From assembly GCF_900095195.1 (NCBI RefSeq), contig NZ_LT606950.1, positions 240,001 to 272,000 of the forward strand: a stretch of DNA of 32,000 bases. Reading direction: 5' to 3'. This document shows, in pieces, positions 2,401-32,000 of this stretch (position 1 is its first letter; each line of letters starts with the position of its first letter). Source of the DNA: Polynucleobacter necessarius (GTDB taxonomy: Bacteria; Pseudomonadota; Gammaproteobacteria; Burkholderiales; Burkholderiaceae). Both the position numbers and the translations under genes were made by a program. The notes beneath the pieces are model-generated. The model saw nothing but the letters and a program-made list of their open reading frames with translations, ran no database searches and had not been told where the DNA came from.

Positions 2401-2419
2401 TTTCTGGGGGTGGGGTAAC

Positions 2420-2686
2420 TTGATAAACGTGCGAGAAAAGCTAATTGAATTATTGAAAGAAGCTGGCGTGGTTAATTTTGGAAATAATGTTGATAACTTT
2501 AATTTTATTGACGATGCTGGTTTGGATTCATTTGAAATAATAAATATTATCTCAGATATAGAATCTATTTTAGGCGCTGAATTACCTATGCATGAGCTTG
2601 AAAAAACGGGCTCGCATACCATTTCTGGTTTTGTTAAAGTCGCCGAAGGGGTTATTAGGAGAATTGATGGGGGTAATCTACGATGA
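2420..2686 (+). CDS. Acyl carrier protein-like carrier protein
   Basis: 88 aa. DDAGLDSFEIINIISDIESILG matches the phosphopantetheine attachment motif (Ser codon at 2528-2530). A G-rich SD (ggggtgggg) lies just upstream of the TTG start. Confidence 0.75.
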   Translation: MINVREKLIELLKEAGVVNFGNNVDNFNFIDDAGLDSFEIINIISDIESILGAELPMHELEKTGSHTISGFVKVAEGVIRRIDGGNLR

Positions 2687-9113: not shown

Positions 9114-9149
9114 TGTATAATTTATTTTTTATTAGCTGGATTAATATTC

Positions 9150-10142
9150 GTGTTTAAAAATTCCTCATTATTAATTACTGGCGGCACGGGTTCATTTGGT
9201 AATGAGTTTCTAGCATCCTGCCTTTTAAATGACGATATTAAAAAAGTTGTCATTTTTTCACGCGATGAAATGAAGCAGTGGGAAATGTCGAAGAGATTTA
9301 GTCATGAACCTAGAGTTCGCTTTTTTATTGGCGATATCAGAGACAAAGATAGGCTCATGCGTGCATTGGATGGTATTGATTATGTTGTACATGCCGCAGC
9401 ACTTAAGATTGTTCCAACAGCTGAGTACAATCCATTTGAATGTATCAAAACTAATATTTTAGGAGCAATGAATTTAATAGATGCCTGTATAGATAAGGGC
9501 GTAAAGCGTTTAGTGGCCTTATCTACAGATAAGGCAAGCAGCCCAATTAATTTATATGGGGCAACAAAACTTGCTTCTGATAAATTGTTCGTGGCAGCTA
9601 ACTCTTATTCTGGTCAGCACGATACTAGATTTTCGGTCGTTCGATATGGCAATGTCATGGGTTCCAGAGGCTCTGTGATACCTTTTTTTTGGAACATGCG
9701 TGATCAAAAGGAATTGCCAATTACTGATCTAGCAATGACGAGATTTATGATTACCCTTGACCAGGGGGTCAAACTGGTTTGGAATGCACTTGAAGACATG
9801 CATGGTGGCGAGATATACGTAAAGAAAATTCCTTCTATGAAAGTGATTGATATTGCCCATAACATCGCCCCTATGGCGCAGCATAAAATCGTTGGGATAC
9901 GCCCCGGAGAGAAAATTCATGAGCAGATGATTGGGATCGAGGATGCGGCTTTCACATACGAGTACGATGATTTTTACAAGATACTACCAAGTATCAACCT
10001 TCGAGGAGATATCGAGCTAATGTCGCGTGGCGGAAAATTAGTGGATAAAAACTTTTCCTATACGAGTGACAATAATACCGATTGGATGCAACCTAAAGTT
10101 TTAGCTGCTTGGATTAAAGCAAATTTATCTAAAGAGATATAA
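9150..10142 (+). CDS. pseB: UDP-N-acetylglucosamine 4,6-dehydratase (inverting)
   Basis: GTG start. LLITGGTGSFGNEF, YGATKLASDKLF (YxxxK) and RYGNVMGSRGSVIP are typical PseB/FlaA1 signatures. About 330 aa. Confidence 0.9.
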   Translation: MFKNSSLLITGGTGSFGNEFLASCLLNDDIKKVVIFSRDEMKQWEMSKRFSHEPRVRFFIGDIRDKDRLMRALDGIDYVVHAAALKIVPTAEYNPFECIKTNILGAMNLIDACIDKGVKRLVALSTDKASSPINLYGATKLASDKLFVAANSYSGQHDTRFSVVRYGNVMGSRGSVIPFFWNMRDQKELPITDLAMTRFMITLDQGVKLVWNALEDMHGGEIYVKKIPSMKVIDIAHNIAPMAQHKIVGIRPGEKIHEQMIGIEDAAFTYEYDDFYKILPSINLRGDIELMSRGGKLVDKNFSYTSDNNTDWMQPKVLAAWIKANLSKEI

Positions 10143-10143
10143 G

Positions 10144-11295
10144 TTGATTCCTTACGCGCGCCAAAGTATCTCGGAGGAAGATATTGAAGCTGTCAATAGA
10201 GTCCTAAAATCAGATTTTCTTACTCAAGGCCCCGTAGTACCCCTCTTTGAAAATGCAATTAAGAAATACTGTAAGGTTGATCACGCAGTAGTTACGAGCA
10301 GCGCAACATCAGCACTTCATATTGCTTGCATGGCTTTAGATGTTGGCCCTGGTGATCTGGTGTGGACTAGCCCAAATTCTTTCGTAGCCTCTGCTAACTG
10401 TGCGTTGTATTGTGGTGCGCAGATCGATTTTGTTGATATTGATTCAGTTACCATGAATATATCAATTGAAAGTCTAGCTGCTAAATTGAAGCTGGGCAAA
10501 ATCCCCAAAGTAGTAATCGCAGTCCATTTTGCAGGAACCTCCTGTGATATGCGATCAATCAAAAGGCTTTCTGATCAATATGGTTTTAAGATAATTGAGG
10601 ATGCCTCTCATGCGATTGGAGGAAGTTATATTAATAATAAAATTGGATCGTGCGAATTTAGCGATGTCACGGTACTAAGCTTTCATCCAGTTAAGATTAT
10701 TACTACTGGTGAGGGCGGCGCCTTATTGACCAATGATGAGAAGATAGCCGATAGGGCGGTGCTTTTAAGATCTCATGGTATCAACAGGGCACTTACCAAA
10801 AGTGATTCTCAAAATAAACCCTGGTTTTATGAGCAAATTGAATTGGGGTTTAACTATCGAATGACAGATATACAAGCTGCGCTTGGGCTTTCTCAGCTTG
10901 AGCGCATTAATGAATTCGTGGATAAACGTCTAATGATTGCGTCAAAGTATGAATTTATGCTTTCTCCTATAGGCTTAAAGTTGCCTGAATTGAGCAGGAA
11001 TAAAGGCTCTGCGTATCATCTTTATGTCATTCAAATACCTGACATATCGGAAGTTCAAAAAGTCTTGATTTTTAAAGGTCTTAATAGTTTGGGGATAAGT
11101 GCAAATGTTCACTATATTCCAATTCATCTCCATCCCTTCTATAAAGCTTTAGGATTTCAAATTGGGGACTTTCCAATTGCTGAAAAATATTATCTCGAGG
11201 CGTTAAGTTTGCCAATGTATCCGGGGTTGGCCGATAAAGACCTCGAACATATCTGCTTCTCATTGAAAACAATGTTAAATCAAAAACTAAATTGA
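10144..11295 (+). CDS. pseC: UDP-4-amino-4,6-dideoxy-N-acetyl-beta-L-altrosamine transaminase
   Basis: TTG start. MIPYARQSISEEDIEAVNRVLKSDFLTQGP is the characteristic PseC N-terminus. PLP-Lys context SFHPVKIITTGEGG. Lies immediately after pseB. Confidence 0.9.
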   Translation: MIPYARQSISEEDIEAVNRVLKSDFLTQGPVVPLFENAIKKYCKVDHAVVTSSATSALHIACMALDVGPGDLVWTSPNSFVASANCALYCGAQIDFVDIDSVTMNISIESLAAKLKLGKIPKVVIAVHFAGTSCDMRSIKRLSDQYGFKIIEDASHAIGGSYINNKIGSCEFSDVTVLSFHPVKIITTGEGGALLTNDEKIADRAVLLRSHGINRALTKSDSQNKPWFYEQIELGFNYRMTDIQAALGLSQLERINEFVDKRLMIASKYEFMLSPIGLKLPELSRNKGSAYHLYVIQIPDISEVQKVLIFKGLNSLGISANVHYIPIHLHPFYKALGFQIGDFPIAEKYYLEALSLPMYPGLADKDLEHICFSLKTMLNQKLN

Positions 11296-12185
11296 TTAAT
11301 AAATTTACCAAAAGAATTTCAATTGGAACTGCTCAATTTGGAAGCGCTTATGGAATCGCAAATAGAGTTGGGGAGGTTAGCGAAGACCACATCGCAGAGA
11401 TGTTGACACAAGCAAAATTAAATGGAATTAAAAAATTAGATACAGCACCCTCTTATGGAAATGCTGAGTCTAAATTAGGTAAGTACGGGGTTAAAGATTT
11501 TGAAATTACTACTAAGGTCTCAAAAATTCCACCCGAAGTCGATGATATTCGTGGCCATATAACCAGAGAAGTTGATAGCTCCATTATAAGGCTTGGAGTA
11601 AATTGTATAGACACAGTGTTATTTCATAATGAAAAAGATTTGGAAGGTCATCGGGGTTACTTAGCATATCAAGCGCTGTATGATCTACAGCTTCAAGGAC
11701 TTGTAAAAAAAATTGGAGTTTCGACTTACTTTAGTGACAGTTTAGAGGCAGCGCTAAGAGAATATAAATTTCAAACTATACAGGTGCCATACAGCATAGT
11801 TGATAGAAGGCTGGAATTTTTTAATTCAAGGTTAGATCTTTATGGGATTGGCATTCAAGCTAGGTCTATTTTTTTACAAGGACTTCTTCTTTTGCAAGCA
11901 AAAGAAGCTATGAAGAGATGCAAAGCATGGGGTAGTAAAGCAGCCGCTTGGAGCTTATTTTTGAATGAAAATAAATGTGCCGCTTATGATGCGGCCCTTT
12001 ATTTCGGGTTATCAAATAGCAATATAGAGACATTTGTGGTGGGTCTGGACAGTTTAGAGCAATTGCAAATGCTTTTGTACTCATTAAAAAGTTTTAATGG
12101 TAACAAATGGCTTTCAATTGAACAGCTAAAGTCTGAAGATGAGAATTTATTAAATCCTTTTGCGTGGAAGAGACTCGATGAATAA
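11292..12185 (+). CDS. Aldo/keto reductase family oxidoreductase
   Basis: ISIGTAQFGSAYGIAN and LDTAPSYGNAE (the Asp/Tyr of the AKR tetrad). TTGA overlap with the pseC stop. Confidence 0.75.
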   Translation: MINKFTKRISIGTAQFGSAYGIANRVGEVSEDHIAEMLTQAKLNGIKKLDTAPSYGNAESKLGKYGVKDFEITTKVSKIPPEVDDIRGHITREVDSSIIRLGVNCIDTVLFHNEKDLEGHRGYLAYQALYDLQLQGLVKKIGVSTYFSDSLEAALREYKFQTIQVPYSIVDRRLEFFNSRLDLYGIGIQARSIFLQGLLLLQAKEAMKRCKAWGSKAAAWSLFLNENKCAAYDAALYFGLSNSNIETFVVGLDSLEQLQMLLYSLKSFNGNKWLSIEQLKSEDENLLNPFAWKRLDE

Positions 12186-13491
12186 AAGTAAAAAAGGTTT
12201 GGAACTATGGGGCCGGGCAAAAAAAGTGATCCCCGGCGGAAATATGTTGCTGTCCAAGAGATCGGAAATGTTTCTTCCAGAGAGGTGGCCCAGCTACTTT
12301 GATAAAAGTCGTGGTTGCACGGTCTGGGATTTAGATGGGAACTCTTATGTTGATATGTCGATAATGGGGATTGGAACCAACAGTCTAGGTTATGGGCATA
12401 AAGATGTTGATAAAGCTGTCATGGAGGTGGTTCAAAAAGGCAATATGTCAACCTTTAACTGCCTTGAGGAGGTTCTCCTTGCTGAAAAACTATTAGAGCT
12501 TCACCCATGGGCGGACATGGTTCGACTTGCGAGGACAGGTGGCGAGGCAAATGCAATAGCAATACGCATTGCGCGTGCGGCATCAGGGCGTGATGGGGTG
12601 GCAATATGTGGCTATCATGGTTGGCATGATTGGTATTTATCTGCAAACATACGTAATAATAATCAACTTTCCGATCATCTTTTACCCGGACTATCACCGA
12701 ATGGTGTTCCAAACAATCTTGGAGGAACGGTATTCCCATTTAGGTATAACAATACTGATGAATTTATGAAGGTCATTACCGAAAATGATATCGGGGTAGT
12801 CAAAATGGAGGTATGTCGCAATGAGCGTCCAGCACCAGGTTTTTTAGAATTTATACGCGATGAAACCAAGAAGCGTGGAATTGTGCTGATTTTTGACGAG
12901 TGCACCTCTGGATTCCGAGAAACATATGGGGGGTTGCATTTGAAATATGGCGTTAACCCTGATATGGCAGTATTTGGAAAGGCGCTAGGTAATGGGTACG
13001 CTATTACAGCGGTAATCGGATCAAAAAATATTATGGAGGCAGCGCAATCAACCTTCATAAGCAGTACTTTTTGGAGCGAGAGAATTGGACCCGCAGCAGG
13101 TATTGCAACTTTAGATGTAATGAAGAAACTTAAATCATGGGAAATAAATTCAGAGACTGGAGAGAGAATAAAAGAGCTCTGGAAATTAATTTCTATAGAA
13201 AATAAAGTGCCGATTAAAGTTTCAGGATTATCTTCGATACCATCATTTAGTTTTGATTCACCCAATCACTTGGCTTTGAAAACATTTTTGACTCAAGAGA
13301 TGTTAAAAAAGGGTTACTTAGCTACACCTCTGATCTTTGTATGCACTAAACATGAAGAACTGATTGTCAAAAGATATGGCCAAGTTCTCAATGATGTATT
13401 TCGTGAAATAAGTCACCTACATGAATTTGAACAAATAGTTAGCCGTTTGGATGGACCGGTATGTCATGATGGTTTTAAAAGACTAAACTAA
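12178..13491 (+). CDS. Class III PLP aminotransferase (glutamate-1-semialdehyde 2,1-aminomutase-like)
   Basis: VIPGGNMLLSKRSEMF...WDLDGNSYVDM, FDECTSGFR and FGKALGNGY (PLP Lys). I place the start at ATG 12178 (MNKSKKG...), which overlaps the upstream stop. Confidence 0.8.
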   Translation: MNKSKKGLELWGRAKKVIPGGNMLLSKRSEMFLPERWPSYFDKSRGCTVWDLDGNSYVDMSIMGIGTNSLGYGHKDVDKAVMEVVQKGNMSTFNCLEEVLLAEKLLELHPWADMVRLARTGGEANAIAIRIARAASGRDGVAICGYHGWHDWYLSANIRNNNQLSDHLLPGLSPNGVPNNLGGTVFPFRYNNTDEFMKVITENDIGVVKMEVCRNERPAPGFLEFIRDETKKRGIVLIFDECTSGFRETYGGLHLKYGVNPDMAVFGKALGNGYAITAVIGSKNIMEAAQSTFISSTFWSERIGPAAGIATLDVMKKLKSWEINSETGERIKELWKLISIENKVPIKVSGLSSIPSFSFDSPNHLALKTFLTQEMLKKGYLATPLIFVCTKHEELIVKRYGQVLNDVFREISHLHEFEQIVSRLDGPVCHDGFKRLN

Positions 13492-13530
13492 GAACAGCTA
13501 TTCGATTGCAAGATTGAACTAAAATAAAAA

Positions 13531-14571
13531 ATGAAAATAGGCAAACATACAATTTCAAGCATTACAGATCCGCTGATTATTGCAGAAGTATCAGGTAATC
13601 ATAATGGTAGTTTAGATATTGCACTTAAGTTAGTAGATGCGGCAGCGCAAGCTGGAATTAAAGTCATTAAATTGCAGACATATACACCCGATACCATCAC
13701 TATGAATCATGATGGTAAGGAGTTTTTAATTGAAGATAGAAAAAGTTTATGGTTTGGTAGAACTTTATACAACCTATACAAAGAAGCATATACTCCATGG
13801 GAGTGGCAGAAGGAGATTTTTTTGCACGCATCCAGGATGGGCGTGCAGTGTTTCAGTTCAGTATTCGATGAATCCTCGGTAGATTTTTTAGAGTCAATTG
13901 AATGTCCAGCCTATAAGATTGCATCTCAAGAATGCGTACACATACCGTTAATTGAGTATGTAGCTCAGACTGGTAAGCCCATCATTATTTCGACTGGAAT
14001 GGCATCTTTAGGTGAAATAGAAACTGCAATTAATGCCTTTTCAAGAAAAAGTTCTGCTGCTTATAGCATCATGAAGTGCACAAGCCAATATCCGGCAGAT
14101 CCAAGAAATTCAAACGTTCTCACAGTTCCCTACATGAAAAAAATATTTGGTTGCGAGGTGGGGCTTTCAGATCATACTTTGGGTGTAGGTGCCTCGTTGG
14201 CTGCAATTGCACATGGCGCAACATTCATAGAAAAACATATTACGCTCAGCAGAAAAGATGGTGGAGTTGATGGCGCATTTTCCCTTGAGCCAAACGAATT
14301 CAAAATGCTCAATGATGAGGCATCGAGAGTGAAACTTTCTCTTGGAAAAGTGAGGTTTGGCCCAGTCGAAGATGAAATTGCCTCCCTTCAAGGAAGGCGC
14401 TCAATTTACGCAGCGGCCGATATCAAAGCGGGTGAAAAATTTACTAAAGATAACATTCAAGTAATCAGGCCATCAGGTGGCATTGAACCAAAATCATACC
14501 GCCTAATTTTAGGCAAATCCGCTATAAGCGATATAAAAAGAGGTACGCCTTTAAATTGGGATTTGATGTGA
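13531..14571 (+). CDS. pseI: Pseudaminic acid synthase (NeuB family)
   Basis: IIAEVSGNHNGSLDIALKLVDAAAQAGIKVIKLQTYTPDTIT plus a C-terminal SAF-like domain (RRSIYAAADIKAGEKFTKDNIQVIRPSGG). About 346 aa. Confidence 0.9.
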   Translation: MKIGKHTISSITDPLIIAEVSGNHNGSLDIALKLVDAAAQAGIKVIKLQTYTPDTITMNHDGKEFLIEDRKSLWFGRTLYNLYKEAYTPWEWQKEIFLHASRMGVQCFSSVFDESSVDFLESIECPAYKIASQECVHIPLIEYVAQTGKPIIISTGMASLGEIETAINAFSRKSSAAYSIMKCTSQYPADPRNSNVLTVPYMKKIFGCEVGLSDHTLGVGASLAAIAHGATFIEKHITLSRKDGGVDGAFSLEPNEFKMLNDEASRVKLSLGKVRFGPVEDEIASLQGRRSIYAAADIKAGEKFTKDNIQVIRPSGGIEPKSYRLILGKSAISDIKRGTPLNWDLM

Positions 14572-14624
14572 ACAAGCTAAGTAAATGGCTAAAGACAGCG
14601 CAAATAAGCAGCTTGGTTAAAAAT

Positions 14625-14660
14625 AAAACTATTTGAAATTTTGATTTCAAATAGTTTTTT
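14625..14660 (+). terminator. Rho-independent-type hairpin closing the pseF...pseI gene block
   Basis: Perfect 11-bp stem ctatttgaaat (14629-14639) / atttcaaatag (14644-14654), 4-nt loop, then T6 (14655-14660), preceded by A4. The stem is AT-rich, so stability is modest. Confidence 0.5.
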
Positions 14661-14761
14661 GTAGCGATAATTAGTCTGCAAATGTGTTAAAAGACCAGGC
14701 TTCGCACCGAGCCATAATTAATTTAGATTTAAGAAAAGTTCCAAAATTTTTTATTTTTGCT

Positions 14762-15787
14762 ATGACAAAAAGTGATAAAGATATTAAGAAGTTGACTATT
14801 GTATTGCCGACATACAATGCAAGAAAATCCATTACAAGGGCCGTGGATTCAGTTCTAAATTTGCTGAATGATTCAGAACTTAGTACAGAGCTAATTGTAA
14901 TTGATGATTATTCAGATGATGATACATTCGAAATAATTAATAAAAATTATTCAGCATTTTCTAACATATATATATATAAAAATGCAAAGAATGAAGGCCC
15001 AGGAAAAACAAGAAATAGCGCATTAGAAAAAATTTCAAGCGGGTATGTAGGGTTTATTGATTCGGATGATCAGTTAAACCCTACCACCTATAAAAAAGCA
15101 TTCCTAGATGGTTTGATCAAAAATGCTGATTTAATAACATTTGATGTTGCAACTATTATGCCAACAAAATCAATACTCAGATATGACTATGATAGAGTTG
15201 GGGGTGATAAATTTAATTTGGTTAGAAATTGCATCAAAGGGGATCTGGATGGATCTGTAATATTTAGTATTTACAAAAAATCAATGCTTGATAACTTTAG
15301 AATAAAGTTTTCTTCAAACTACTATGAGGACATAGTATTTAATTATTCGGCTATTATGTCCTCCGATAGTATTCATGTGGCAAAAGAAATTTGCTACAAA
15401 AAATACTGCACTCCAAAATCAATACTAAACTCAATATCTGAAAAGCATATTGACGGAATGATAGACGCTTCTATCTTGGTTAGAGATTTTGCAATTCGTA
15501 ATGGTTACTCTACATATAAAGAATTTAAATCTGATTTCGACTATTGTCTTTCTGGTTATATTGCCTCATTAGTTATAGATATCTTGAAGCATGAAAAAAG
15601 TATCGATCGATCTATCAGTCTTCTAAAATATCTTCACCAAAAGCTAGAGCGTTGTTTTAGAATGGGAAATATAGCCACGAGAGTCGATACCAAAAAAGAC
15701 AGATTAAGTAATTTTTTCATAAATAATTTTGATACTAGTAGGTTAAATATAACCATTGGTCGGTTAAAGGAGTTGATTGAATTATGA
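14762..15787 (+). CDS. Family 2 glycosyltransferase
   Basis: LTIVLPTYNARKSITRAVDSVLN, LIVIDDYSDDDT and GFIDSDD (DxD). Start placed at ATG 14762 (MTKSDKD...), whereas the ORF track begins at 14684. Confidence 0.8.
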   Translation: MTKSDKDIKKLTIVLPTYNARKSITRAVDSVLNLLNDSELSTELIVIDDYSDDDTFEIINKNYSAFSNIYIYKNAKNEGPGKTRNSALEKISSGYVGFIDSDDQLNPTTYKKAFLDGLIKNADLITFDVATIMPTKSILRYDYDRVGGDKFNLVRNCIKGDLDGSVIFSIYKKSMLDNFRIKFSSNYYEDIVFNYSAIMSSDSIHVAKEICYKKYCTPKSILNSISEKHIDGMIDASILVRDFAIRNGYSTYKEFKSDFDYCLSGYIASLVIDILKHEKSIDRSISLLKYLHQKLERCFRMGNIATRVDTKKDRLSNFFINNFDTSRLNITIGRLKELIEL

Positions 15788-17100
15788 AAACAAAAAGTTG
15801 CATATATTTACAAAAAGCAGTTTACTTTGCTCCCTCTGAAATAAGGGCTTGCTGCCAAAGATTTTTCTACAAGGATCAATTAAAAGGTGACGCAGTATTG
15901 CTCAAAGCCAAAAACAAAAATGTTTCTTATAGCGAAATACTTGACGCAAAGAGAGAGCTAATAAACTTAATCAATAGTAATGAGGAAAATCAGTGCACTG
16001 GCTGCCCCCACATTAAAAAATCAGATTGGCCTCCGGTCGAGTTTGAGTCGGTGAATGTTTGTTCTATTGAGGATCATTCATTGTGTAATATGCGCTGCTC
16101 GTATTGTTCTGATACATTTTATGGTGGTGAAGCTCCACAATATAACTTAAAAAACATTTTGGATGAGATGCGCCCAGATGAAAACCTTCATATTGCATGG
16201 GGAGGTGGGGAGCCAACATTGCGTAAAGATTTTGAAGACCTCTTCTTGGATGTCACTTATAAATTAAATCCCAAAACCCAAAGGGTATTTACTAACGCAT
16301 TAATCTACTCGCCATCTATGCAGAGGGTAATTGATGCAGGTTTGACATCAATTACAACTAGTCTTGATGCTGGTACTGAAGAAACTTTTATTAAAGTTAG
16401 GGGGGCTAAAAAAATCAATAGGGTATTCGCAAATCTTTCTAGGTATAGTCAATTAAGACCAGACTTATGTACGATAAAGTACATTTTTACTGATGATAAT
16501 TGCTCAATTCATGAGATTGAAAGTTTTGTGGGCAAGGTAGAAGAAAATAGACTTCAAGCGTGCAATTTTCTAATAAGCACTGACTTTAAATTGCAAAGTC
16601 TACATGAAAACAAAGTCAAAGGAATAAGTTGGCTTTATTTCCTTTTGGTATCAAAAGGAATAGTTTCGATTACATTTGATGATCATATTTTCGCTAGACT
16701 CAGATCAATAATGCCAAGATTACGAGCGATATTGCAGGATTTCATTTCCTGCAAATCAGAATCAGGGCTTGGCAGCTTAAAAGAATTGATTGATAACTAT
16801 GCTGGCGTTGAAAATGAATTGCCAATTTATGTATGGGGAACCGGAGAATTTGCCAAATTTTTATTATCTTCATCTGAAATGCTGAGCAATAAAAGGATAA
16901 AAATATTAGGCTTTGTGGATGGAAATAGTAATTTATGGGGCGAAGAATTTGATGGATTTAAAATTTTAGACCCCAAAATTTTACTTAACTCAAATGCAAA
17001 GATTCTAATTGCATCAGCAAATCATTATGGTGAGATTGTTAATAGTGTCTTAAAGATGGGAATTGGTCGAGAAAGAATAATCCCCAATTTTATACTGTAA
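15784..17100 (+). CDS. Radical SAM enzyme with N-terminal Cys-rich region and C-terminal Rossmann-like domain
   Basis: CNMRCSYC (CxxxCxxC, codons 16084-16107) and GGGEPTL (SAM-binding GGE motif). Extra Cys residues at CC (ACCQRF) and CTGC lie upstream of the core. The C-terminal IYVWGTGEFAKFL...ILGFVDGNSNLWGEEFDGFKILDP resembles the nucleotide-binding N-domain of NeuD/PglD-type proteins. ATGA overlap with the GT2 gene. Confidence 0.8.
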   Translation: MKTKSCIYLQKAVYFAPSEIRACCQRFFYKDQLKGDAVLLKAKNKNVSYSEILDAKRELINLINSNEENQCTGCPHIKKSDWPPVEFESVNVCSIEDHSLCNMRCSYCSDTFYGGEAPQYNLKNILDEMRPDENLHIAWGGGEPTLRKDFEDLFLDVTYKLNPKTQRVFTNALIYSPSMQRVIDAGLTSITTSLDAGTEETFIKVRGAKKINRVFANLSRYSQLRPDLCTIKYIFTDDNCSIHEIESFVGKVEENRLQACNFLISTDFKLQSLHENKVKGISWLYFLLVSKGIVSITFDDHIFARLRSIMPRLRAILQDFISCKSESGLGSLKELIDNYAGVENELPIYVWGTGEFAKFLLSSSEMLSNKRIKILGFVDGNSNLWGEEFDGFKILDPKILLNSNAKILIASANHYGEIVNSVLKMGIGRERIIPNFIL

Positions 17101-17267
17101 CTTGATTATTGAGAAATTAATACCGCTTAAGCTGTTGTCTAATTTTTGAAGTTCTGATAAGTATGACCACGTAAGTTTTATTCGTGACAAAAGAGCACCT
17201 TTCCATGTTGATTCACCGCGTTGCCTGGGTTTTTCGGTGGGATTTACAATTAACCAATTGGGATTGC

Positions 17268-17777
17268 TTAAGTAAGAGATAGCAAAGAAATAAAGTGCAG
17301 AGGTTTTTTGGTGCAGACCCAAGAGCCATTTATTAATGCATCAATAATGTGACCTTCATTAATTTCGCCCCCAGTGAGTTCATTGCTGCATCCAATTGTA
17401 TTGGAGTTGAAGTAATCTTTAATGCAGGTGTTAACCCATTGCCTTCCAAAATAAGTGTATGCAATTTGGCCCTTGTCAATGAAAAAAGAGTCTGCATTTT
17501 TGAAATATGGTGATGATGGCGTTTTTAAATGTACAAACACATTTTGAAGGTCTATGTCTTTAGGCTGAATTTGAATTAGATTATGAATATCATGTCCTAA
17601 GTAGGATCTTCCGTTAAGAATGAAAACATCAATTTCGACTGAGAAGCCTTCTTTAAGGCATTTTTTTATGCTTAGTATAGAATTTTCGGCCCAATGCATG
17701 TCATACATGGCTCTATGAATAATGATTTTAGATTTTGATATTTGTTCCGGCATATTTTTTCGATTGTGGGTATCCAA
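17268..17777 (-). CDS. Glycerophosphodiester phosphodiesterase (GDPD)-like protein, possibly truncated by a frameshift
   Basis: IIIHRAMYDMHWAENSILSIKKCLKEGFSVEIDV...LGHD carries the GDPD HR / EN / ExD / HD signature. It is the only minus-strand gene in the island. At 169 aa it is short for the family (see finding). Confidence 0.5.
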   Translation of the reverse strand: MDTHNRKNMPEQISKSKIIIHRAMYDMHWAENSILSIKKCLKEGFSVEIDVFILNGRSYLGHDIHNLIQIQPKDIDLQNVFVHLKTPSSPYFKNADSFFIDKGQIAYTYFGRQWVNTCIKDYFNSNTIGCSNELTGGEINEGHIIDALINGSWVCTKKPLHFISLLSLT

Positions 17778-17806
17778 AACTCTATTTTATTATCAAGGAT
17801 TAATTG

Positions 17807-18592
17807 ATGAATGAAAAAGCATCGGTATATACAAAAAAGATACTCATAACGGGCGCTTCGGGGCAGATGGCAAGCATAGCCCGTGATTTATACTGCAGTC
17901 ATTCTGTGGAATTATGGTCAACCAAGGATCTTGTTCTCAGAAAAAATGAAAGTTTACGAAAATCAGCCGACTTAGCCGATTCAACATGGTGGAAGACCTC
18001 TCAATTTAAGGTAAATTACGATATTATTTTTCATTTTGCTGAACCAGTTAAAAAAAAACTAACCCCAGATATTGTCGAAAAAATAATTGAGAGCCATACA
18101 GCTTTTTTAATCAATGCAACGAAATACGGCGCAAAAGTGGTTTATCCACTTACCGCTTATAGGTATGATCAGTCTCTGTCATTTAAAAATAGACAGTATA
18201 GAAATATTAAAGAGCGTGTAGCAATGACATTGCTGAAAAACGAGAAAATACTTCTTCCAATATTGCATCCAGTTGTAGATTTTGGTAATGGACTAAATTC
18301 AATCAGAAATCTCGTTAATAAAGTGCCAATAATTAATCCATTCTCAGAATTTAATGCTGAATTACCAGTTCTGTGTGAACATGATTTGAAGAGTTACATG
18401 CTAAACATTGAACAACAAAAAAGTGGAGCGACTAATGTGTATACTGAAATATTAAAAATAAAAAAAATTTTTAACAACCCCAATAAAAAAGATATAAGTT
18501 TTATTTCTGCACTATTAAAAACATTAATAAATACATTGCCAGATAGCGGTATAAAAAATATTTTAATTAATGGAAGAAAGATATATGATTAG
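17807..18592 (+). CDS. NAD(P)-binding Rossmann-fold protein (divergent epimerase/dehydratase/reductase-like)
   Basis: KKILITGASGQMASIARDL (GxxGxxA) and a QYRNIK (YxxxK-like) motif. Weak, family-level call. ATG 17807 preferred over TTG 17804. Confidence 0.45.
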   Translation: MNEKASVYTKKILITGASGQMASIARDLYCSHSVELWSTKDLVLRKNESLRKSADLADSTWWKTSQFKVNYDIIFHFAEPVKKKLTPDIVEKIIESHTAFLINATKYGAKVVYPLTAYRYDQSLSFKNRQYRNIKERVAMTLLKNEKILLPILHPVVDFGNGLNSIRNLVNKVPIINPFSEFNAELPVLCEHDLKSYMLNIEQQKSGATNVYTEILKIKKIFNNPNKKDISFISALLKTLINTLPDSGIKNILINGRKIYD

Positions 18593-19229
18593 GTTATTTG
18601 ATATATCTTTAGCTATATTTTTTTCCCCACTTTATTTATTATTATTAATAATAGGGTCAGTATTAAAACTGATAATTGATGGCAGGCCAATTTTTTACAT
18701 ATCCAAAAGATGCGTCAAAAATTTGAAAGAAGTAAAAGTCTACAAGTTTAGGACAATGATCAATGAAAGGTTGCTCATTGAGAATGAGGTTGCGAAGTAT
18801 ACAAAAAATGGGTTTGAGACTATACCATTACGATCAAATATTTATACCCCCCTGGGAAGAATTTATGAAAAATTTCAATTAGTGGAGCTACCCCAATTTT
18901 TAAACATTTTGATCGGCGAAATTTCATTTGTTGGATACAGGCCGCTTCCAGAGAAAAATATCAAAAAATTAACAAATGATCTAGGTGGCGATTTAGTTAC
19001 TCAAAGACACAAATACAATGCTGGTCTAACTGGCTATACTCAATTAATTGGAAAGATAAATTTATCTCCGACAAAGCGTTTGCAACTTGAAATACAGCTT
19101 GGTCAAGATCTATATGAAAACGGATTAATTATGGCCTCGAAAACATATTTTTCATTAATCCTCGATACAATAATACTGATAGTTTTTGATAAAACGATTT
19201 TTATTAACAGGGAAAAATTAATTGAATAG
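18585..19229 (+). CDS. Small monotopic phosphoglycosyl transferase (bacterial sugar transferase, PglC/WbaP C-domain family)
   Basis: MIRLFDISLAIFFSPLYLLLLIIGSVLKLIIDGRPIFY (re-entrant helix), VYKFRTMI, and LVELPQFLNILIGEISFVGYRPLPE. ATG 18585 overlaps the upstream stop. Confidence 0.8.
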   Translation: MIRLFDISLAIFFSPLYLLLLIIGSVLKLIIDGRPIFYISKRCVKNLKEVKVYKFRTMINERLLIENEVAKYTKNGFETIPLRSNIYTPLGRIYEKFQLVELPQFLNILIGEISFVGYRPLPEKNIKKLTNDLGGDLVTQRHKYNAGLTGYTQLIGKINLSPTKRLQLEIQLGQDLYENGLIMASKTYFSLILDTIILIVFDKTIFINREKLIE

Positions 19230-23557: not shown

Positions 23558-24546
23558 CTAGGAAAAATTTCTCTCGCCTTGCTATGGTTGCCAATATATT
23601 GCTCAGTTTGTATTTAGCTCCTATTGAAAAATATATTCAGCTTCATAGGACATCTAAATAATTCATTTTGATTCTTTTAATCTAAATAGTTTGAATGCTT
23701 AAAAAGCGGTAACGTCACCCTGTATCAAACTTAGAAGTTTTTCATTATGTAGAAGTAGACTTTTAGGTTGGGTTTAATGCGTATTAAACTTTGTATACTT
23801 TTTCAAAAATTATTGTGGCGCCCTATGCAAAGGTATTTTTTAAGCACACTTTTTCTAGACTATGTGTTCTCTGCAGAACTGATAAAGGATTATTGCAAGG
23901 CAATAGGCATAACCTAATTCCGTCTGTAAATATCACATTGCATATATTCTGGAAGCTTGCCAAACAGTTTAAATGCTGTAGCCAAATTTAAACATTTGGG
24001 TGATCTGAGTGTAGTTTTTAAAATATGAGTAAGTTTCCCATGCTGACGCATATCCAAAGTTGTGACATGAGACAGAGTGCTATGTGTTGTGAAACTAACG
24101 TACCCTTTTTAACTCTGCGTATAGCGCACGATTAGGTGGTCTGAAGTTAGTCCTTTATCATCCCGAATGTCGAGTCGCCTAATAAGAAAATGCGAAATTG
24201 TACTTATGAATATAAAATTAAGATTTTAAAGTCTTTGAATATGAATTTAGACGCCATTACAACAGTTATGAGCACATCATTCTTAAAATATCACTCGGTA
24301 TATTTTTGCCATATGTCTAAATCCGCTATGATTATCGCAGACTCAGGCAGGGCTGTAATTATATTAAGATCCAATAATTCTTTTATATCGCGTATAAGGA
24401 TTGTACAATAAAGAACAGTAAATATAATTTAAATATTCTTAATCCATCAATTCAATGTCGGAAATTTAATTCTAAATAGCGTCATGACTGGAAAAACGCT
24501 CGCCTGTACAAGATTGGATTTTGTCTGAAGCGAAGCAACTATATCT

Positions 24547-25508
24547 TTAGGCATAATAAATTTGAGATTCAGGAACCAAACTCAAGAACAAATACTCAAA
24601 GAAGCTAATCAGATGCACTACACCCTGCATAGGGTGGTTCTGCCAATAGCTAATGTAAGCGCTCCAATAAAGAAGGTGAGGTACATTAGGGTTATATTGA
24701 GACTGCTAATACCTAGGCTAAGAGGGAGCTGGGAATAATTGCTATCGCAGCAATAGTTGGAATGGATAGGCCAATACTGGCTAATGCTGAACCGAGTGCG
24801 AGATTAAGGCTGCTTTGCAAACGATTGGCTTTGACTGCTCGGACAGAAATACGCATGCTGAAAAGCCCAGCAATCTCAAGACTGTCATCAGCGTCATTCT
24901 TCTCATTTTTTCTCTCGTTATTGTTGTTGGTTTAGCTAAGTTACCCGGCCCTGCTATAGAAGCAGGAGTGAAAGCAGCTGGCGCACCTAAGACGATTGTG
25001 GGTATTGCCATTGCGATGCTGGTATTACTACCAGAGGGTTATGCTGCTGCCGTTCTTTTGATCTTCATCTTTCGGTAAATAGTAGTCACGGTGACTAACG
25101 GTTTGAAAAAATAAGAACGCGACGTACAACACAAAAGAAGCAATACCTGCAAAGGCTGGCCGACTTTTTGTAAAGTCCGGCCCCGGGGTGCTGGTGGTCA
25201 CAATCGGCATCACCAAAATAAAGGTTCCTAGGGCTGTTAAAACTGCTGGCGCAGAATTGGTGCCCTCATTGCGAAAGGACATTTCATGATGGTGGAAACC
25301 GCCAATAAAGATGCATAAGCCATATATGGTGCGCTCGTATTAGCAATTAGCGTGACCATCATCGAAGTATCACTCATTATTTCCATGATGTTGCTGGCCA
25401 TGATGGCTCTCAGTTTGTTGCTCGAGATGCTGTTTTTGCGACCGTCATGATTGTGCTCAATGGTGTGATTGGCTCACCTGCCTTGTGGGCGATCACTTCT
25501 GCATGATG
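24547..25508 (-). pseudogene. chaA: Ca2+/H+ antiporter (ChaA-like) remnant: 5'-truncated, frameshifted, with two internal blocks inverted
   Basis: Five colinear blocks match successive ChaA regions. They are HHAEVIAHKAGEP (minus, 25470-25508); IYGALVLAISVTIIEVSLI...ARDAVFATVMIVLNGVIG (PLUS, ~25322-25473); GLCIFIGGFHHHEMSFRNEG...FLFFQTVSHRDYY..KDEDQKN (minus, ~25055-25321); HAEKPSNLK...AGAPKTIVGIAIAMLVLLPEGYAAAV (PLUS, ~24848-25054); and VRAVKANRLQSSLNLALGSALASIG...GRTT..QGVVHLISFF (minus, 24547-~24847, with extra frameshifts). Confidence 0.65.
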
Positions 25509-26142
25509 GGCTGCAGCAATCAATACGCCTGCGAAGGCTGCGGTCAATGAAGATAGTGCGTAAGAAAATGTAGTTACTTGGCTAGTGTTAATCCCCATCA
25601 AGCCTGCAGCATCGCGATCGTTCGCGGTTGCAACCACTTGCTTTTCCGTAAATCGTTTTACGGTTGAAGAACTCTACCAATAACATCATCACCAGAGCGC
25701 CTACAACCACCAAGATTTCCATCGGAAGAATATTGGCGCTAAAGAAATTCATTGGCACCATTGGCAATGGTGCTGGGAATGGCAATGCATCACGACCCAA
25801 AATATTTTCAGCAACGTTTTTGAAAATGATTCCGAGCGCGATGGTGGACATAATTCATCCGAACTCGGATTTGATTTTGATAGCGGGACGCACACCAATT
25901 AATTCCACAAAACTACCTTGCAACATGCCGAACAAACACACGATGGGGATTATGACCCAGTAGTTGAGTCCGAAAGTATCCACACAGGTTAGGCAAAAAA
26001 GCGCGCCCAACATCAGGACTTCACCTTGTCCGAAGTTCAATGTGCCGGAAGTGGCAAAAGTAAGCTGGAAACCGAAAGCGATTACCGCATAGATCATCCC
26101 CACCGCGATACCGCTTGAGAGGATGTGAGCAAGCATGTCCAT
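25509..26142 (-). pseudogene. livH: Branched-chain amino acid ABC permease (LivH-like) remnant: two frameshifts, 3'-truncated
   Basis: Three minus-strand ORF pieces read through as LivH: MDMLAHILSSGIAVGMIYAVIAFGFQLTF...IKSEFG / (W)IMSTIALGIIFKNVAENILG...NRKTIYGKA / VATANDRDAAGLMGINTSQVTTFSYALSSLTAAFAGVLIAA. Frame breaks lie near 25852 and 25632. The last third is missing, and the remnant abuts chaA sequence. Confidence 0.7.
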
Positions 26143-26200
26143 TGTGCCTGCCTAAAATTTATAAATACTTCTGTTTTATGAATGAATCCAACATTGTAAG

Positions 26201-26233
26201 CAAAACGCCGCCTTTTGGGCGGCGCTTTGTTTT
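26201..26233 (-). terminator. GC-rich hairpin terminator after the binding-protein gene (potentially bidirectional)
   Basis: Stem cgccgcc (26206-26212) / ggcggcg (26218-26224), 5-nt loop, flanked by A4 on one side and ctttgtttt on the other. On the minus strand it reads gcgccgcc-caaaa-ggcggcg-TTTTG. Confidence 0.6.
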
Positions 26234-26284
26234 ATCCAATGTTGCAGTGCAACAAGTACTTATTGCCTGCGACTGAAGATCAGA

Positions 26285-27469
26285 TTACTTCTTCTTGGCT
26301 GTTGCGTCTTCAGCATTCAAGAACTCAACGCGACCGTTCTCAACTACACCCATCACAACATCTTTTGCCTTAATTGCTTCATGGTCTGTTGCGGAGAATG
26401 GCTTGTTGTAAGTGATCACAACACCATCTACTGGAGCCTTCAAATCTTGTAATGCTGCCAAGATTTTTGGTCCCTCAGTGCTGTTAGCTTGCTTGATTGC
26501 AGCAGCCAAGAGGTAAACAGAGTCATAACCCTGTGCAGCAGACACTGGAGAAAGAATGTTGTTATTTTTTGGCTTGAACTCTTTCAAGTAGGCTTCCTGG
26601 AAAGTCTTACGCTTTGGAGTCGTGGATGGAGACTGAATGTAGGTTTGTGGCATGGTTGCACCGTCACCGTTCTTACCAGCAGTATCGATGAAGCTCGCCA
26701 TTGACAATGTCCAGCCACCGATCATTGGCTTTTTCCAGCCCAACTTCGCCATACCGTTTGCAATTTGTGCCAACTCAGGTCCAATTGCATACGTTAAGAT
26801 TACTTCTGCACCCGCATTTTTTGCTTTGAGCAATTGTGAAGTCATATCTACGTCACCAATGTTGAATTTCTCAACAGCTACTGGTGTTACGCCATATGTC
26901 TTGAGGGCTTTTTCCAAGTCCTCACGACCCAACTGGCCATAGTTTGTAGAGTCAGCCAAGATCGCTACTTTTTTCAAGCCGCGCTTTTCAACCGCTTCTT
27001 TAGCAATCATTGGTGCCTGAATATTGTCCGCTGCAGCGTTACGGAAAATATAGTTCTCTGGCGCGTTCGGGAATTGCTTGGTCAAGATAGAGCCAGTAGC
27101 AACGTTGTTCATCACTGGAATCTTGGCGTCTTGATAAAAACGCTGGGAAGCCAATGCAACACCAGTATTGATGTAACCCAAAGTGGCAACCACTTTCTCG
27201 TTATTAATCAACTCTTGAGCAATTTGTACGCCACGCTCGTTTTTCGCTTCATCATCGCGTTCAATCAATACGATTTTGTTGCCGTTAATACCACCAGCAG
27301 CATTGATCTCTTTAGCAGCAAGACGCACTCCGTCGCGCATACTCACGCCCATCGAAGATGAACCACCAGTAAATGGGCCAGATAAACCGAGTTTGATATC
27401 GGCTGCGTAAGCGCTAGTGGCAACTAATGCAGAAGCGGCTACAGCAAAAATGTGACGACGAATATTCAT
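26285..27469 (-). CDS. Periplasmic branched-chain amino acid (Leu/Ile/Val)-binding protein family, ABC substrate-binding component
   Basis: Signal peptide MNIRRHIFAVAASALVATSAYA. IKLGLSGPFTGGSSSMGVSMRDGVRLAAKEINAAGGINGNKIVL is the type I PBP (LivK/LivJ) N-terminal pattern. 394 aa, uninterrupted. Confidence 0.85.
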   Translation of the reverse strand: MNIRRHIFAVAASALVATSAYAADIKLGLSGPFTGGSSSMGVSMRDGVRLAAKEINAAGGINGNKIVLIERDDEAKNERGVQIAQELINNEKVVATLGYINTGVALASQRFYQDAKIPVMNNVATGSILTKQFPNAPENYIFRNAAADNIQAPMIAKEAVEKRGLKKVAILADSTNYGQLGREDLEKALKTYGVTPVAVEKFNIGDVDMTSQLLKAKNAGAEVILTYAIGPELAQIANGMAKLGWKKPMIGGWTLSMASFIDTAGKNGDGATMPQTYIQSPSTTPKRKTFQEAYLKEFKPKNNNILSPVSAAQGYDSVYLLAAAIKQANSTEGPKILAALQDLKAPVDGVVITYNKPFSATDHEAIKAKDVVMGVVENGRVEFLNAEDATAKKK

Positions 27470-27607
27470 AATGTCTCCATGACTAAAAATGCGAATGAAA
27501 TAAAACTTTTTTATATTTACTACAACTGACGAACGATTATCTTACCGTGATTGCCAAAGCAAAAAAAGGGGCTGCTATTAGGGTTTTACATTAGCGTGTT
27601 GAGTGGG

Positions 27608-29115
<1,508 letters not shown>

Positions 29116-29116
29116 A

Positions 29117-29419
29117 GGCGAGATCTCTCAGGCAGAGGGAGTGGCGCAGCAGATCGGCGCAAAGGACTCTCCAAAACTAGAGGTTCGATTCGCACCTTCT
29201 TGGCTCGCTTTTTTGCCCATGGTTTGGGGCGATTATTGGGTCATCGATTTAGATCCCCAGTATCAAGTAGCTGCAGTGAGTGATCCGAAGCGCGAATACC
29301 TTTGGGTGTTGTCTAGGACACCACAGTTGGACAAAAAATACGATGAGCTCTTGGTCCGGCTGCAGGCTCAGCAATTTGATATTCGTCAGCTCGAGCTCAC
29401 CACGCAAACGGCACAGTAA
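29117..29419 (+). pseudogene. blc: Bacterial lipocalin (Blc-like) C-terminal fragment
   Basis: GEISQAEGVAQQIG...KLEVRFAPSWLAFLPMVWGDYWVIDLDPQYQVAAVSDPKREYLWVLSRTPQLD parallels the C-terminal half of Blc (…LKVSFFGPF..YNVIALDREY…DYLWILSRTP). There is no N-terminal half, lipoprotein signal or credible start. Confidence 0.7.
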
Positions 29420-29432
29420 TCGAGTCATTCCA

Positions 29433-30215
29433 TTGAGTTATTTTTCATTACCACTAGGGATCGAGGTATTCGAGTGGGGATGGCTTTCTGCCAACAATAT
29501 CTTTCACTTTGGCGAAGAGGATGTATCGCTGGTAGATAGTGGATATTGTTCACATCAGAGCATGACATTGGATTTTGTTCGAAATGCACTCCTACGCCAT
29601 CAGCTAAAAAACTTAGATAAGGTTGTTAATACCCACCTGCACTCTGATCATTGTGGTGGTAATGCGCAACCAGCCAATAGCTATCACTGCAAAATTTGGA
29701 TACCCAGTGCAGAAGCTCCAGCAGTAGAGAGTTGGGATGAAAACCGATTGAGTTATCAAAATCTTGGTCAAGAGTGCCCACGCTTTCAATGCGATGAGGT
29801 TCTGGAGCCGGGTCAGAGTATCCAATTGGGGCGCTATCAATGGACAATATTGTCGGCGCCAGGACAGGATCCACATCCTGTCATGCTCTATCAAGAGGAG
29901 CATGGGATTCTGATTTCTGCGGATGCCCTTTGGGAGGAGGGGTTTGGTGTCGTCTTTCCTGAGATGTGGGGCGAACCAGGGTTTGAAGAGGTGGCGCAAA
30001 CCCTGGATCTTATTGAAAATCTAAAAATCTCGGTAGTGATTCCGGGTCACGGCAAAATCTTCACCGATGTTACAAAATCCATCGCTACAGCGCTCTCTCG
30101 ATTAGACTACTTGGCATCCAATTCTGATCGAAATGCTCGCCATGGAGCTAAGGTGCTTTTGAAGTACAAGCTAATTGAGTGGCAAATAAAAGAATTGAGT
30201 GAGGTTAAAGAGTAG
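29433..30215 (+). CDS. MBL-fold metallo-hydrolase (ends at an in-frame TAG; homologous frame continues to 30356)
   Basis: VVNTHLHSDHCGGN (HxHxDH), later ISADALWE and VIPGHG. TTG 29433 is the first plausible start after the blc remnant; the ORF-track start at 29280 overlaps that remnant. Confidence 0.7.
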   Translation: MSYFSLPLGIEVFEWGWLSANNIFHFGEEDVSLVDSGYCSHQSMTLDFVRNALLRHQLKNLDKVVNTHLHSDHCGGNAQPANSYHCKIWIPSAEAPAVESWDENRLSYQNLGQECPRFQCDEVLEPGQSIQLGRYQWTILSAPGQDPHPVMLYQEEHGILISADALWEEGFGVVFPEMWGEPGFEEVAQTLDLIENLKISVVIPGHGKIFTDVTKSIATALSRLDYLASNSDRNARHGAKVLLKYKLIEWQIKELSEVKE

Positions 30216-30367
30216 ATTTTGAATACACCCGCTTTAAAGAGCGCAGCGTATCAACTCAATATAGATGACGAGGAGTTTTCTCAATGGCTGCTACAAGCTC
30301 TGGTTAAATCCGGAGCTGCCCTGTGCGATGGAATGAATTTAATGGATCAGGTTTAATAAGGGGATAT

Positions 30368-30776
30368 ATGGAACATACTGTTTTAGTGACTGGTGCTACG
30401 GCTATGCGCTAGGTCTCGATATGACTCGTAGAGATCTACAGCGGTTTATGGGAGATCAAAAGAAGCCCTGGGAAATTGGTAAGTCGTTTGATTACTCTGC
30501 CCCAATCGGCCCAATCTATACCGTAGATAAAATTGGTCATTTCCAGAAGGGTGCTATTGCGCTATCGGTAAATGGCGTAACTAAACAGAGCGCTGATTTG
30601 AGTCAAATGATTTGGTCGGTGGCTGAACAGGTTTCAAAGCTATCCGAGGCAAATGAATTATTCCCTGGCGACATATTTATTCCGGCACTCCTGAGAATGT
30701 TGGTCCTGTTGTCAAAGGCGATGTAGTACGCTGTACGATTGCCGGCTTACCGGATTTGGTAGTGAAAATCGTTTAA
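30368..30776 (+). pseudogene. Fumarylacetoacetate hydrolase (FAH)-family C-terminal fragment, frameshifted, preceded by the first ~11 codons of an unrelated SDR/epimerase gene
   Basis: YGYALGLDMTRRDLQ...KPWEIGKSFDYSAPIGP...SQMIWSVAEQVSKLSE...FPGDI, then a frameshift (~30675-30682) to YSGTPENVGPVVKGDVVRCTIAGLPDLVVKIV* (stop at 30774-30776). Upstream, ATG 30368 with SD aagggg encodes MEHTVLVTGAT, a Rossmann N-terminus that stops making sense at ~30400. Confidence 0.65.
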
Positions 30777-30781
30777 GATCG

Positions 30782-31526
30782 ATGCGCGTATTGCTAGCCT
30801 TAGGGCTTTTATTCGTCTCTTTGGGAACGCATGCCGTTGAGTATCGCTTTTATTCGGCGGCAGGCGTCAAGGCTCCTTTGACAAATCTTTCGGAAATTTT
30901 TAATCGTAATCAGTCTGGATATCGAATCGTGAATGATTTTGATACCGCAGGAGCTGCAGAAAAAAAATTTTCGAGGATACTAAAAGTACTTGCTTAATCA
31001 CCACCAAAGTTCGCATGGACAACGCCATCAAAGCCGGCACTCTTCCGATGAATAGCGCAACACCATTGGTAGATACTCTTGCAGGAATTTCCTCTTCAAA
31101 TACGGTAAAGCCAGTTATTAAGAACTCGCAGCAATTAACCGATGTTTATTACAAGCAAAGTCGATTGCATTCTCGGACCCCGAGAGAGGCGCAACCGTGG
31201 GCCGTCATTTTCAGCAGGTGATTAAAAAACTCGGCATTGAAGATCAGGTATTAAAAAAATCCATACTGGCAAGCGATGGCGTCGAGACCATGAAACTGGT
31301 TTTGGCAAAAAAAGTCGAGATAGGAATCGCGCAAATGAGTGAGGTTATTCAGGCAGATCGAAGTGCACTTGTTGGGCCATTTCCCCCCGAATATGAATTG
31401 GCAACCCGATATTCGTTATATTGCAAGAATCGGGATCAAGACAAGCTGGCATCGTTTATTGGTTTACTGCAATCCCCGTTCGGCAATCAAGTATTCAGGA
31501 GTTCTGGCTTACGTCCGGTGCAGTAA
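30782..31526 (+). pseudogene. ModA-like periplasmic substrate-binding protein with at least 2 frameshifts
   Basis: Signal peptide MRVLLALGLLFVSLGTHA, and FYSAAGVKAPLTNLSEIF..NDFDTAGAAEKKF. The frame breaks at the A8T4 run (30960-30971) and again near 31145-31150. The last piece, ...SIAFSDPERGATVGRHFQQVIKKLGIEDQV...VGPFPPEYELATRYSLY, runs to 31526. The family call is tentative. Confidence 0.5.
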
Positions 31527-31535
31527 ATAGCTGGA

Positions 31536-32000
31536 TTATGGATTTTTCTTCCATTTGTAGAATTTGGGATAGATGCGCATCACGGTTGGACCATTAAAGT
31601 CCCAAGTTTTGCATGTGCCTAAATACAGGGGAGGCTGATTTCCATCGATATCCATTAGGGCCCCGGGTATCGCTTGAAAAGCTGCTGTCGCTAGATTATT
31701 TAAGAGCTCTCTTAAATGCGTGCAGCCTGCAATTCCGCCTAAGTGCGTTTGAATGGTTTTGCGCCACCCCTTGCCCAATTGTTCTCCAATGAGTGCATTC
31801 ATGGGCGGAATAACATGGGGGCATTCAGGATGAGGATGTCCATCCATCGCAACTTCTATGCCTTGAATAATTAACTCACTATTGAGAGTCAGGCGCACCC
31901 ACTTGTCATGGAAAGCTTCACCCGGTTGGTAGGTTGTGGTTCCTGTGACAAAGGGCGTTGTCTTGTAATCACGAAGATGCCCTTCAATATCCCAAAGACC
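31536..32000 (-). CDS. DUF2889-family protein, 5'-partial (continues right of window)
   Basis: The minus-strand frame is open to nt 32000 (GLWDIEGHLRDYKTTPFVTG...HDKWVRLTLNS...). HPHPECPHVIPPM and GGIAGCTHLRELLNNLATAAFQ are typical DUF2889 strings. Confidence 0.65.
   Translation of the reverse strand, partial: GLWDIEGHLRDYKTTPFVTGTTTYQPGEAFHDKWVRLTLNSELIIQGIEVAMDGHPHPECPHVIPPMNALIGEQLGKGWRKTIQTHLGGIAGCTHLRELLNNLATAAFQAIPGALMDIDGNQPPLYLGTCKTWDFNGPTVMRIYPKFYKWKKNP

Follow-up and report, generated by a model that had tools for sequence, protein, structure and literature searches.

The 32,000-nucleotide (nt) window analysed here (contig NZ_LT606950.1, positions 240,001 to 272,000) is very probably a piece of the chromosome of an obligate cytoplasmic Euplotes endosymbiont, Polynucleobacter necessarius, in an early and pseudogene-rich phase of genome reduction, in which the backbone evolves neutrally and a pseudaminic-acid (Pse) surface-glycan cluster is kept under purifying selection. 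Eight of ten window proteins are identical to RefSeq proteins of P. necessarius, all of them on one chromosome of 1,550,368 bp. Moreover, the top relatives of the LivK-like protein, in a scan of one genome per species, are all Polynucleobacter (87-95% amino acid identity). In passages of PMC5018217, P. necessarius is the species name of obligate endosymbionts of Euplotes ciliates. Excerpts of PMC11253213 add that host and symbiont are unable to grow separately, and that the symbiotic genomes are reduced relative to free-living ones, with less coding DNA and more pseudogenes. For strain STIR1, the corresponding passages give a loss of ~28% of the DNA, ~18% pseudogenes and no mobile elements (PMC5632650; genome size and gene number in PMC4285135). 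The main pattern is already known, being a known phenomenon in a known organism, and is seen here at nucleotide resolution.

The window divides near 24 kb. To the left lie same-strand open reading frames (ORFs) of ~35% GC, and to the right ~46% GC DNA with short ORFs in many frames, the sole long one being the 394-amino-acid LivK-like ORF. On the left, the NCBIfam equivalog cut-offs (in brackets) are exceeded for PseB with 516.8 bits (407.75), PseC with 515.3 (423.5) and PseI with 437.5 (340.25). A PseF-like protein (164 bits against 205.7), a PseG-like N-terminal domain (136.7 against 153.55) and a PseH-like GNAT protein (29.9 against 93.1) fall below theirs. Pfam matches with full profile coverage comprise an ACP, an AMP-dependent ligase, an SDR, a class III aminotransferase, an aldo-keto reductase, a radical SAM protein and a methyltransferase, together with an ABC exporter, two Wzy-like proteins, an initiating sugar transferase, a polysialyltransferase-like enzyme and GT2/GT4 glycosyltransferases. 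On the right, the short ORFs were found by Pfam scan to be fragments of recognisable genes. The backbone loci concerned are as follows.

24571-25516, - strand, chaA (Ca2+/H+ antiporter) pseudogene with frameshifts, two in-place inversions and its 5′ end lost
25512-26142, - strand, livH pseudogene, residues 1-210 of 292
26285-27469, - strand, LivK-like substrate-binding protein, intact, 394 amino acids, 93-95% identical to free-living orthologues
27611-28555, - strand, EamA transporter pseudogene with 1-nt insertions or deletions (indels) at 27622, 27703 and 27941
28521-29118, - strand, GMC oxidoreductase pseudogene, residues 348-547 alone left, 2-nt deletion at 28668
29117-29416, + strand, blc (lipocalin) 3′ fragment, residues 89-188 of 194
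29433-30356, + strand, MBL-fold hydrolase, colinear over its whole length with the 307-amino-acid orthologue, Trp261 changed from TGG to TAG at 30213-30215
30368-30409, + strand, SDR stub (MEHTVLVTGATAMR*) of 14 codons; the orthologue has 256 amino acids
30421-30776, + strand, FAH-family fragment, Pfam positions 93-177 of 214, 5′-truncated and with a frameshift near 30670
30782-31526, + strand, ModA-like periplasmic binding-protein pseudogene in three frames, i.e. with two frameshifts
31536-32000, - strand, DUF2889 gene, lesion-free, leaving the window end; residues 26-176 of 182 align

Nine of the 11 backbone loci between 24.5 and 31.5 kb are broken: chaA, livH, EamA, GMC oxidoreductase, blc, MBL hydrolase, SDR, FAH and the ModA-like gene. 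A preliminary description, made from the letters of the window, had named these loci as inactivated and the MBL hydrolase as cut by a TAG, and each is indeed damaged where it was placed. The two loci it had called clean, LivK and the partial DUF2889 gene, show no lesions against their orthologues. For the left part of the backbone, ORFs of free-living loci were translated and mapped onto the window; for the right-hand part, the reference was the DNA surrounding the MBL orthologue of P. wuianus and that of strain es-MAR-4. Full-length orthologues exist in free-living Polynucleobacter for chaA (342 amino acids), livH (292), EamA (305-319) and GMC (547-555), as well as for blc (191-194), MBL (307-312), SDR (256) and DUF2889 (179-182). 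The free-living order in P. wuianus and es-MAR-4 is MsrP-(MsrQ)-blc-MBL-SDR-DUF2889. The FAH fragment and the ModA-like gene, which sit between the SDR stub and DUF2889 in the window, were assessed solely by Pfam profile coverage and reading frames.

The preliminary description proves correct in almost all its details, the micro-inversions included; 1-nt indels and a nonsense codon were likewise found. Pieces of chaA are spread across both strands. In livH (a BPD_transp_2 permease by Pfam), residues 1-168 and residues 162-210 are read in different frames, with the frameshift near 25640-25658 and the gene cut at residue 210. EamA covers the full length of its orthologue, though in two frames, so that part of it is out of frame. 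The GMC remnant is the C-terminal domain only and is itself split, of the lipocalin only the C-terminal two-fifths are left, and the ModA-like remnant matches the C-terminal half of SBP_bac_11 (all by Pfam). The MBL hydrolase (29433-30215) is listed in RefSeq as an ordinary 260-amino-acid protein; the TAG falls 47 codons before the conserved end, and the codons past it are still colinear with the orthologues.

Selection was gauged against a sister strain, represented by contigs from ENA ERZ27248707, Logan SRR32119647 and Logan SRR8208349. These three assemblies are mutually 99.98-100% identical and therefore represent one second strain, assembled three times. A literature search for its run and assembly accessions returned no paper. 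The island is shared with it at 98.7-99.1% identity, and the shared backbone comprises positions 24007-25516 and 25751-29118. The island and its spacers are as follows.

1-23557, + strand, surface-glycan island of ~35% GC, running off the left window end (from Pfam/NCBIfam matches, GC profile and dN/dS)
17101-17803, no strand, dead spacer inside the island, without 365 bp present in the sister strain
23558-24546, no strand, non-coding spacer of ~1 kb between island and chaA

Over 6,366 codons of island ORFs there are 81 synonymous (Sd) and 75 non-synonymous (Nd) differences, giving a synonymous divergence (dS) of 0.0206, a non-synonymous divergence (dN) of 0.0050 and a dN/dS of 0.24. Only two indels, of 3 bp and 12 bp, lie inside island ORFs, and both are in-frame. 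The 1-nt indels, 9-nt indels and 365-bp deletion of the island are all confined to the non-coding 17.1-17.8 kb. By comparison, the dead or non-coding backbone has 61 substitutions and 16 indels, of which 15 are not a multiple of 3; indel and substitution counts differ between island ORFs and backbone (Fisher’s exact test, p = 4e-7). The divergence of the chaA region (2.26%) is close to the island dS (2.06%). Dead DNA drifts at the neutral rate, whereas constraint acts on the proteins of the island. For the backbone, the proposed relaxed selection and reductive evolution are thus borne out by the intact free-living orthologues, divergence near dS, frame-breaking indels and the endosymbiont identity of the DNA, and the continuing selection proposed for the island by its dN/dS and its exclusively in-frame indels.

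The same comparison dates individual lesions. A three-way DNA alignment of chaA reveals one 1-nt deletion common to both strains, a lesion thereby sequenced four times, with further private ones in each; chaA was therefore already dead in the common ancestor. The lesions in GMC are private, with a 2-nt deletion in the window and two other 1-nt deletions in the sister. The sister livH has its own +1 insertion and another truncation point. All three EamA indels are window-specific, the sister gene being intact (292-312 amino acids). The strain pair offers a clean local estimate of the neutral spectrum, ~1 indel per 4 substitutions plus rearrangements at microhomologies.

Under the explanation we favour, genes for transport and peripheral metabolism (ChaA, Liv permease, EamA, GMC, Blc, MBL, SDR, FAH and ModA-like) are unneeded in the host and left to neutral drift. 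Small indels gather in them at about one for every four substitutions, together with a nonsense codon and micro-inversions at 4-6 bp inverted repeats, and larger rearrangements join at microhomologies of 2-4 bp. The low-GC pseudaminic-acid cluster meanwhile stays open under purifying selection. The window then portrays a young obligate symbiont that is losing transport and peripheral metabolism first and from which a cell-surface glycan pathway stays.

Several observations weigh against this explanation. At 0.24, dN/dS in the island is not especially low, and one island gene, the initiating sugar transferase (Bac_transf, 18570-19229), has 9 non-synonymous changes versus 1 synonymous, making it the sole island gene with dN/dS >1. 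LivK is intact despite its destroyed permease, and intactness alone is therefore no proof of function. Lastly, nine broken loci of 11 against an expectation of 18% gives a binomial probability of ~8e-6, although the loci are non-independent, fragment counting varies between studies and the window covers 32 kb only. In the sugar transferase, the replacements are all window-specific and mostly conservative; a hidden frameshift was considered and rejected, given the conservative replacements and the lack of any indel.

LivK is indel-free in both strains although livH is differently broken in each, and livMGF are not adjacent. Its dN/dS against the sister is ~0.37, from 9 changes only. Two readings are open to it, an orphan binding protein that remains in use or a loss of very recent date. 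In P. necessarius isolate PPGSP2 (LT606947.1; positions 8925-9789 and 13258-14124 of the locus L018 taken from it), EamA is split into ORFs of 233 and 143 amino acids and livM is truncated (288 vs 642 amino acids); the same genes are decaying in parallel in this independent symbiont lineage.

The density of dead genes may exceed average erosion for a reason of its own, namely that a complex rearrangement or hotspot by the hypervariable glycan locus cut chaA, livH, GMC and blc at once, amid dispensable accessory genes. We consider this a real possibility, albeit one that falls short of even chances. In the sister, chaA is followed by CbiX, a truncated NIR_SIR gene, a 687-amino-acid acyltransferase, a split beta-lactamase gene, DarP and the 5′ part of GMC, and continues with EamA, LivK and livH on the strand of the island. 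In the window, chaA is instead fused straight to livH at 25516/25517 with 3-4 bp of microhomology. The stretch 25517-29118, made up of livH-LivK-EamA-GMC (3′ part), has the opposite orientation to its sister counterpart, and at 29118/29119 its GMC end is joined to the middle of blc. Both ends of this block lie inside genes, the two micro-inversions described below directly adjoin it, and every junction carries (micro)homology of 2-6 bp (2-4 bp at 25516/25517 and 29118/29119). The 1,550,368-bp chromosome does encode, at another place, proteins that share >90% identity with CbiX, acyltransferase, SLT, endonuclease and SRAP of the sister, and their RefSeq numbers (WP_114661878 to ...898) come shortly after that of LivK (WP_114661858). 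These five intervening genes are still on the chromosome, and therefore the half genes at the junctions (chaA, livH, GMC and blc) are breakpoints of inversion or translocation; the remainder of each presumably lies beyond the window. The multi-gene deletions of the preliminary description are accordingly rearrangement junctions at least in part, and probably for the most part. However, five of the nine broken loci (EamA, MBL, SDR, FAH and ModA-like) have no visible debt to junctions. In the sister, chaA and GMC had either been broken before or were breaking on their own, and the sister region, which lacks the rearrangement, is still about half pseudogenes. Going by the literature figures, erosion is a genome-wide trait of P. 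necessarius and nothing special to the surroundings of the island. Rearrangement next to the island adds to neutral decay of the backbone as an explanation and does not replace it.

It is also conceivable that the island is intact merely through recent horizontal acquisition, being too young to have decayed and unselected. The GC contrast (~35% in the island, ~46% in the backbone) is in keeping with this. So is the last island glycosyltransferase, whose nearest non-self homologue is 73% identical and the next 49%; the cluster is therefore lineage-specific. However, the island is older than the split of the two strains. Moreover, at the backbone ratio its 157 ORF substitutions predict ~40 indels, against the two in-frame ones seen, with a dN/dS of 0.24. 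Mutation is not lower there either, because the island spacer carries indels that are not multiples of 3 as well as the 365-bp deletion. We regard an unselected island as quite improbable. Sequencing or assembly error as the source of the broken backbone genes is more improbable still: some window-specific indels do sit in short runs (G5 to G6 at 27941, a T run at 27622) and the chaA micro-inversions come from a single assembly, but among the lesions are a TGG-to-TAG transition, a 2-nt deletion outside any homopolymer and truncations, the sister has its own lesions in the same genes, a comparable micro-inversion recurs in its three assemblies, and one chaA frameshift is common to those three separate assemblies and is therefore no sequencing error. 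The long homopolymers quoted in the preliminary description are present exactly, and none of the 42 island runs of ≥7 nt disrupts an ORF, on which ground homopolymer error in particular was rejected, as that description had argued.

As assembled, two segments of chaA read in reverse without having changed position, whether they are set against the sister (96.6-98.7% identity) or against free-living chaA.

24844-25049, no strand, micro-inversion 1, 206 bp, in chaA, window-specific, with inverted repeat GACAGC / GCTGCC
25324-25474, no strand, micro-inversion 2, 151 bp, in chaA, window-specific, with inverted repeat AGCCA / TGGCT

The short inverted repeats coincide with the segment ends in the un-inverted sister sequence. 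Longer inverted repeats were looked for at the ends and none coincide, and the scan of window ORFs gave no recombinase domain. With chaA already dead besides, a programmed or site-specific inversion switch was rejected. Both events are known from one assembly only. A third micro-inversion, of ~165 bp, was detected by an automated in-place inversion search in a dead acyltransferase-3-like gene of the sister strain (L087:6746-6909 = L085:20263-20430; also L084 and L088). It is inverted relative to at least 12 free-living Polynucleobacter loci and is present in three of three sister assemblies. The same search returned none in the 21-kb PPGSP2 locus and none in ten free-living versus free-living controls. 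At least three in-place micro-inversions therefore fall within ~25 kb of eroding backbone in this lineage, and three in ~25 kb of dead DNA versus none in ten free-living comparisons hints at a lineage-specific repair or replication defect. Such inversions would arise by template switching between short inverted repeats in replication, or by RecA-independent illegitimate recombination.

Small in-place inversions by short inverted repeats occur elsewhere, associated with hairpins in plastid genomes and as template switches at quasi-palindromes in E. coli. The likeness is that the segment stays in place and ends on a short inverted repeat. The window repeats differ in being of only 4-6 bp with 150-206 bp between them, too weak to hold a hairpin stably, and the events lie in dead endosymbiont genes, clustered with the 3.6-kb inversion. 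No description of micro-inversion as a mode of pseudogene decay in bacterial endosymbionts was found in the literature searched. Speculatively, and with the balance of probability tilted against it, dead genes of this lineage may decay not through point mutations and indels alone but also through repeated in-place micro-inversions (150-206 bp long, with inverted repeats of 4-6 bp at their ends), clustered with kilobase inversions at microhomologies, as the footprint of template switching in a repair-impaired symbiont, with a Pse-type, sialic-acid-like glycan among the few accessory traits defended by selection and hence a ciliate-facing molecule.

Genome erosion in P. necessarius as an Euplotes endosymbiont has reportedly been treated by Boscaro and colleagues (PNAS in 2013, Nat Ecol Evol in 2017; summaries in PMC5632650, PMC11253213 and PMC4285135). 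The window shares with that system the species, a recent free-living origin, many recognisable pseudogenes and a lack of mobile elements in the stretch examined. There is essentially no difference; what the window contributes is a comparison of two strains and of an intact island with an eroding backbone. Sodalis glossinidius and Serratia symbiotica are likewise recently host-restricted and massively pseudogenised (PMC3091646, PMC4285135). There too, frameshifts, nonsense codons and truncations inactivate genes and envelope functions are kept. However, in those genomes genes are to a large extent inactivated and rearranged by insertion sequences, whereas the window junctions are plain microhomologies and no insertion-sequence or transposase domain was found among the window ORFs scanned.

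The preliminary description had presented 23.5 kb of glycan genes as intact. This holds for the ORFs, none of which is broken, but the DNA is not wholly coding, since 17101-17803 and 23558-24546 are dead spacers. The island resembles Gram-negative Pse clusters in that PseB, PseC and PseI pass their cut-offs and it also encodes PseF/G/H-like and Wzy-like proteins, an exporter and an initiating transferase. It differs from them in that its PseF, PseG and PseH stay below the cut-offs, in its residence in an obligate intracellular symbiont, and in its additional ACP, AMP ligase, SDR, radical SAM and class III aminotransferase genes (acyl-modification genes). The SDR, ACP (2420-2686), AMP-dependent ligase, aldo-keto reductase, class III aminotransferase and radical SAM genes (within 1639-4184 and 11292-17100) adjoin the Pse genes, and this neighbourhood suggests an unusual nonulosonic acid, acylated or otherwise modified. 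A literature search for Polynucleobacter together with pseudaminic acid gave no meaningful link. The predicted glycan may have been kept as part of the cell envelope, the interface of the symbiont with its host. Of the roles proposed for it earlier (host, phage or grazer interaction), host interaction alone is plausible for an intracellular symbiont. Its retention under selection suggests that pseudaminic-acid glycan is a candidate for host-symbiont recognition in Euplotes.

Some minor features of the island and its borders complete the picture. Searches of the window for tRNA genes and Rfam families returned neither, and the island boundary is therefore not marked by a tRNA. The first island ORF (10-846) encodes a 278-amino-acid Wzy_C-like protein under the Pfam cut-off, and a stop codon lies in the first 9 window bases. 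Within the spacer between island and chaA, a 248-bp non-coding segment (23759-24006) is carried by the window strain only, being missing in all sister assemblies and unrepeated elsewhere in the sequences compared. The sister counterpart of 17101-17803 is a 1.1-kb gap that holds (L081:13850-14144) a frameshifted RuBisCO-like C-terminal remnant (PF00016, E = 2e-8), in the stretch of which the window has lost 365 bp; a RuBisCO-like gene formerly lay inside the glycan cluster.

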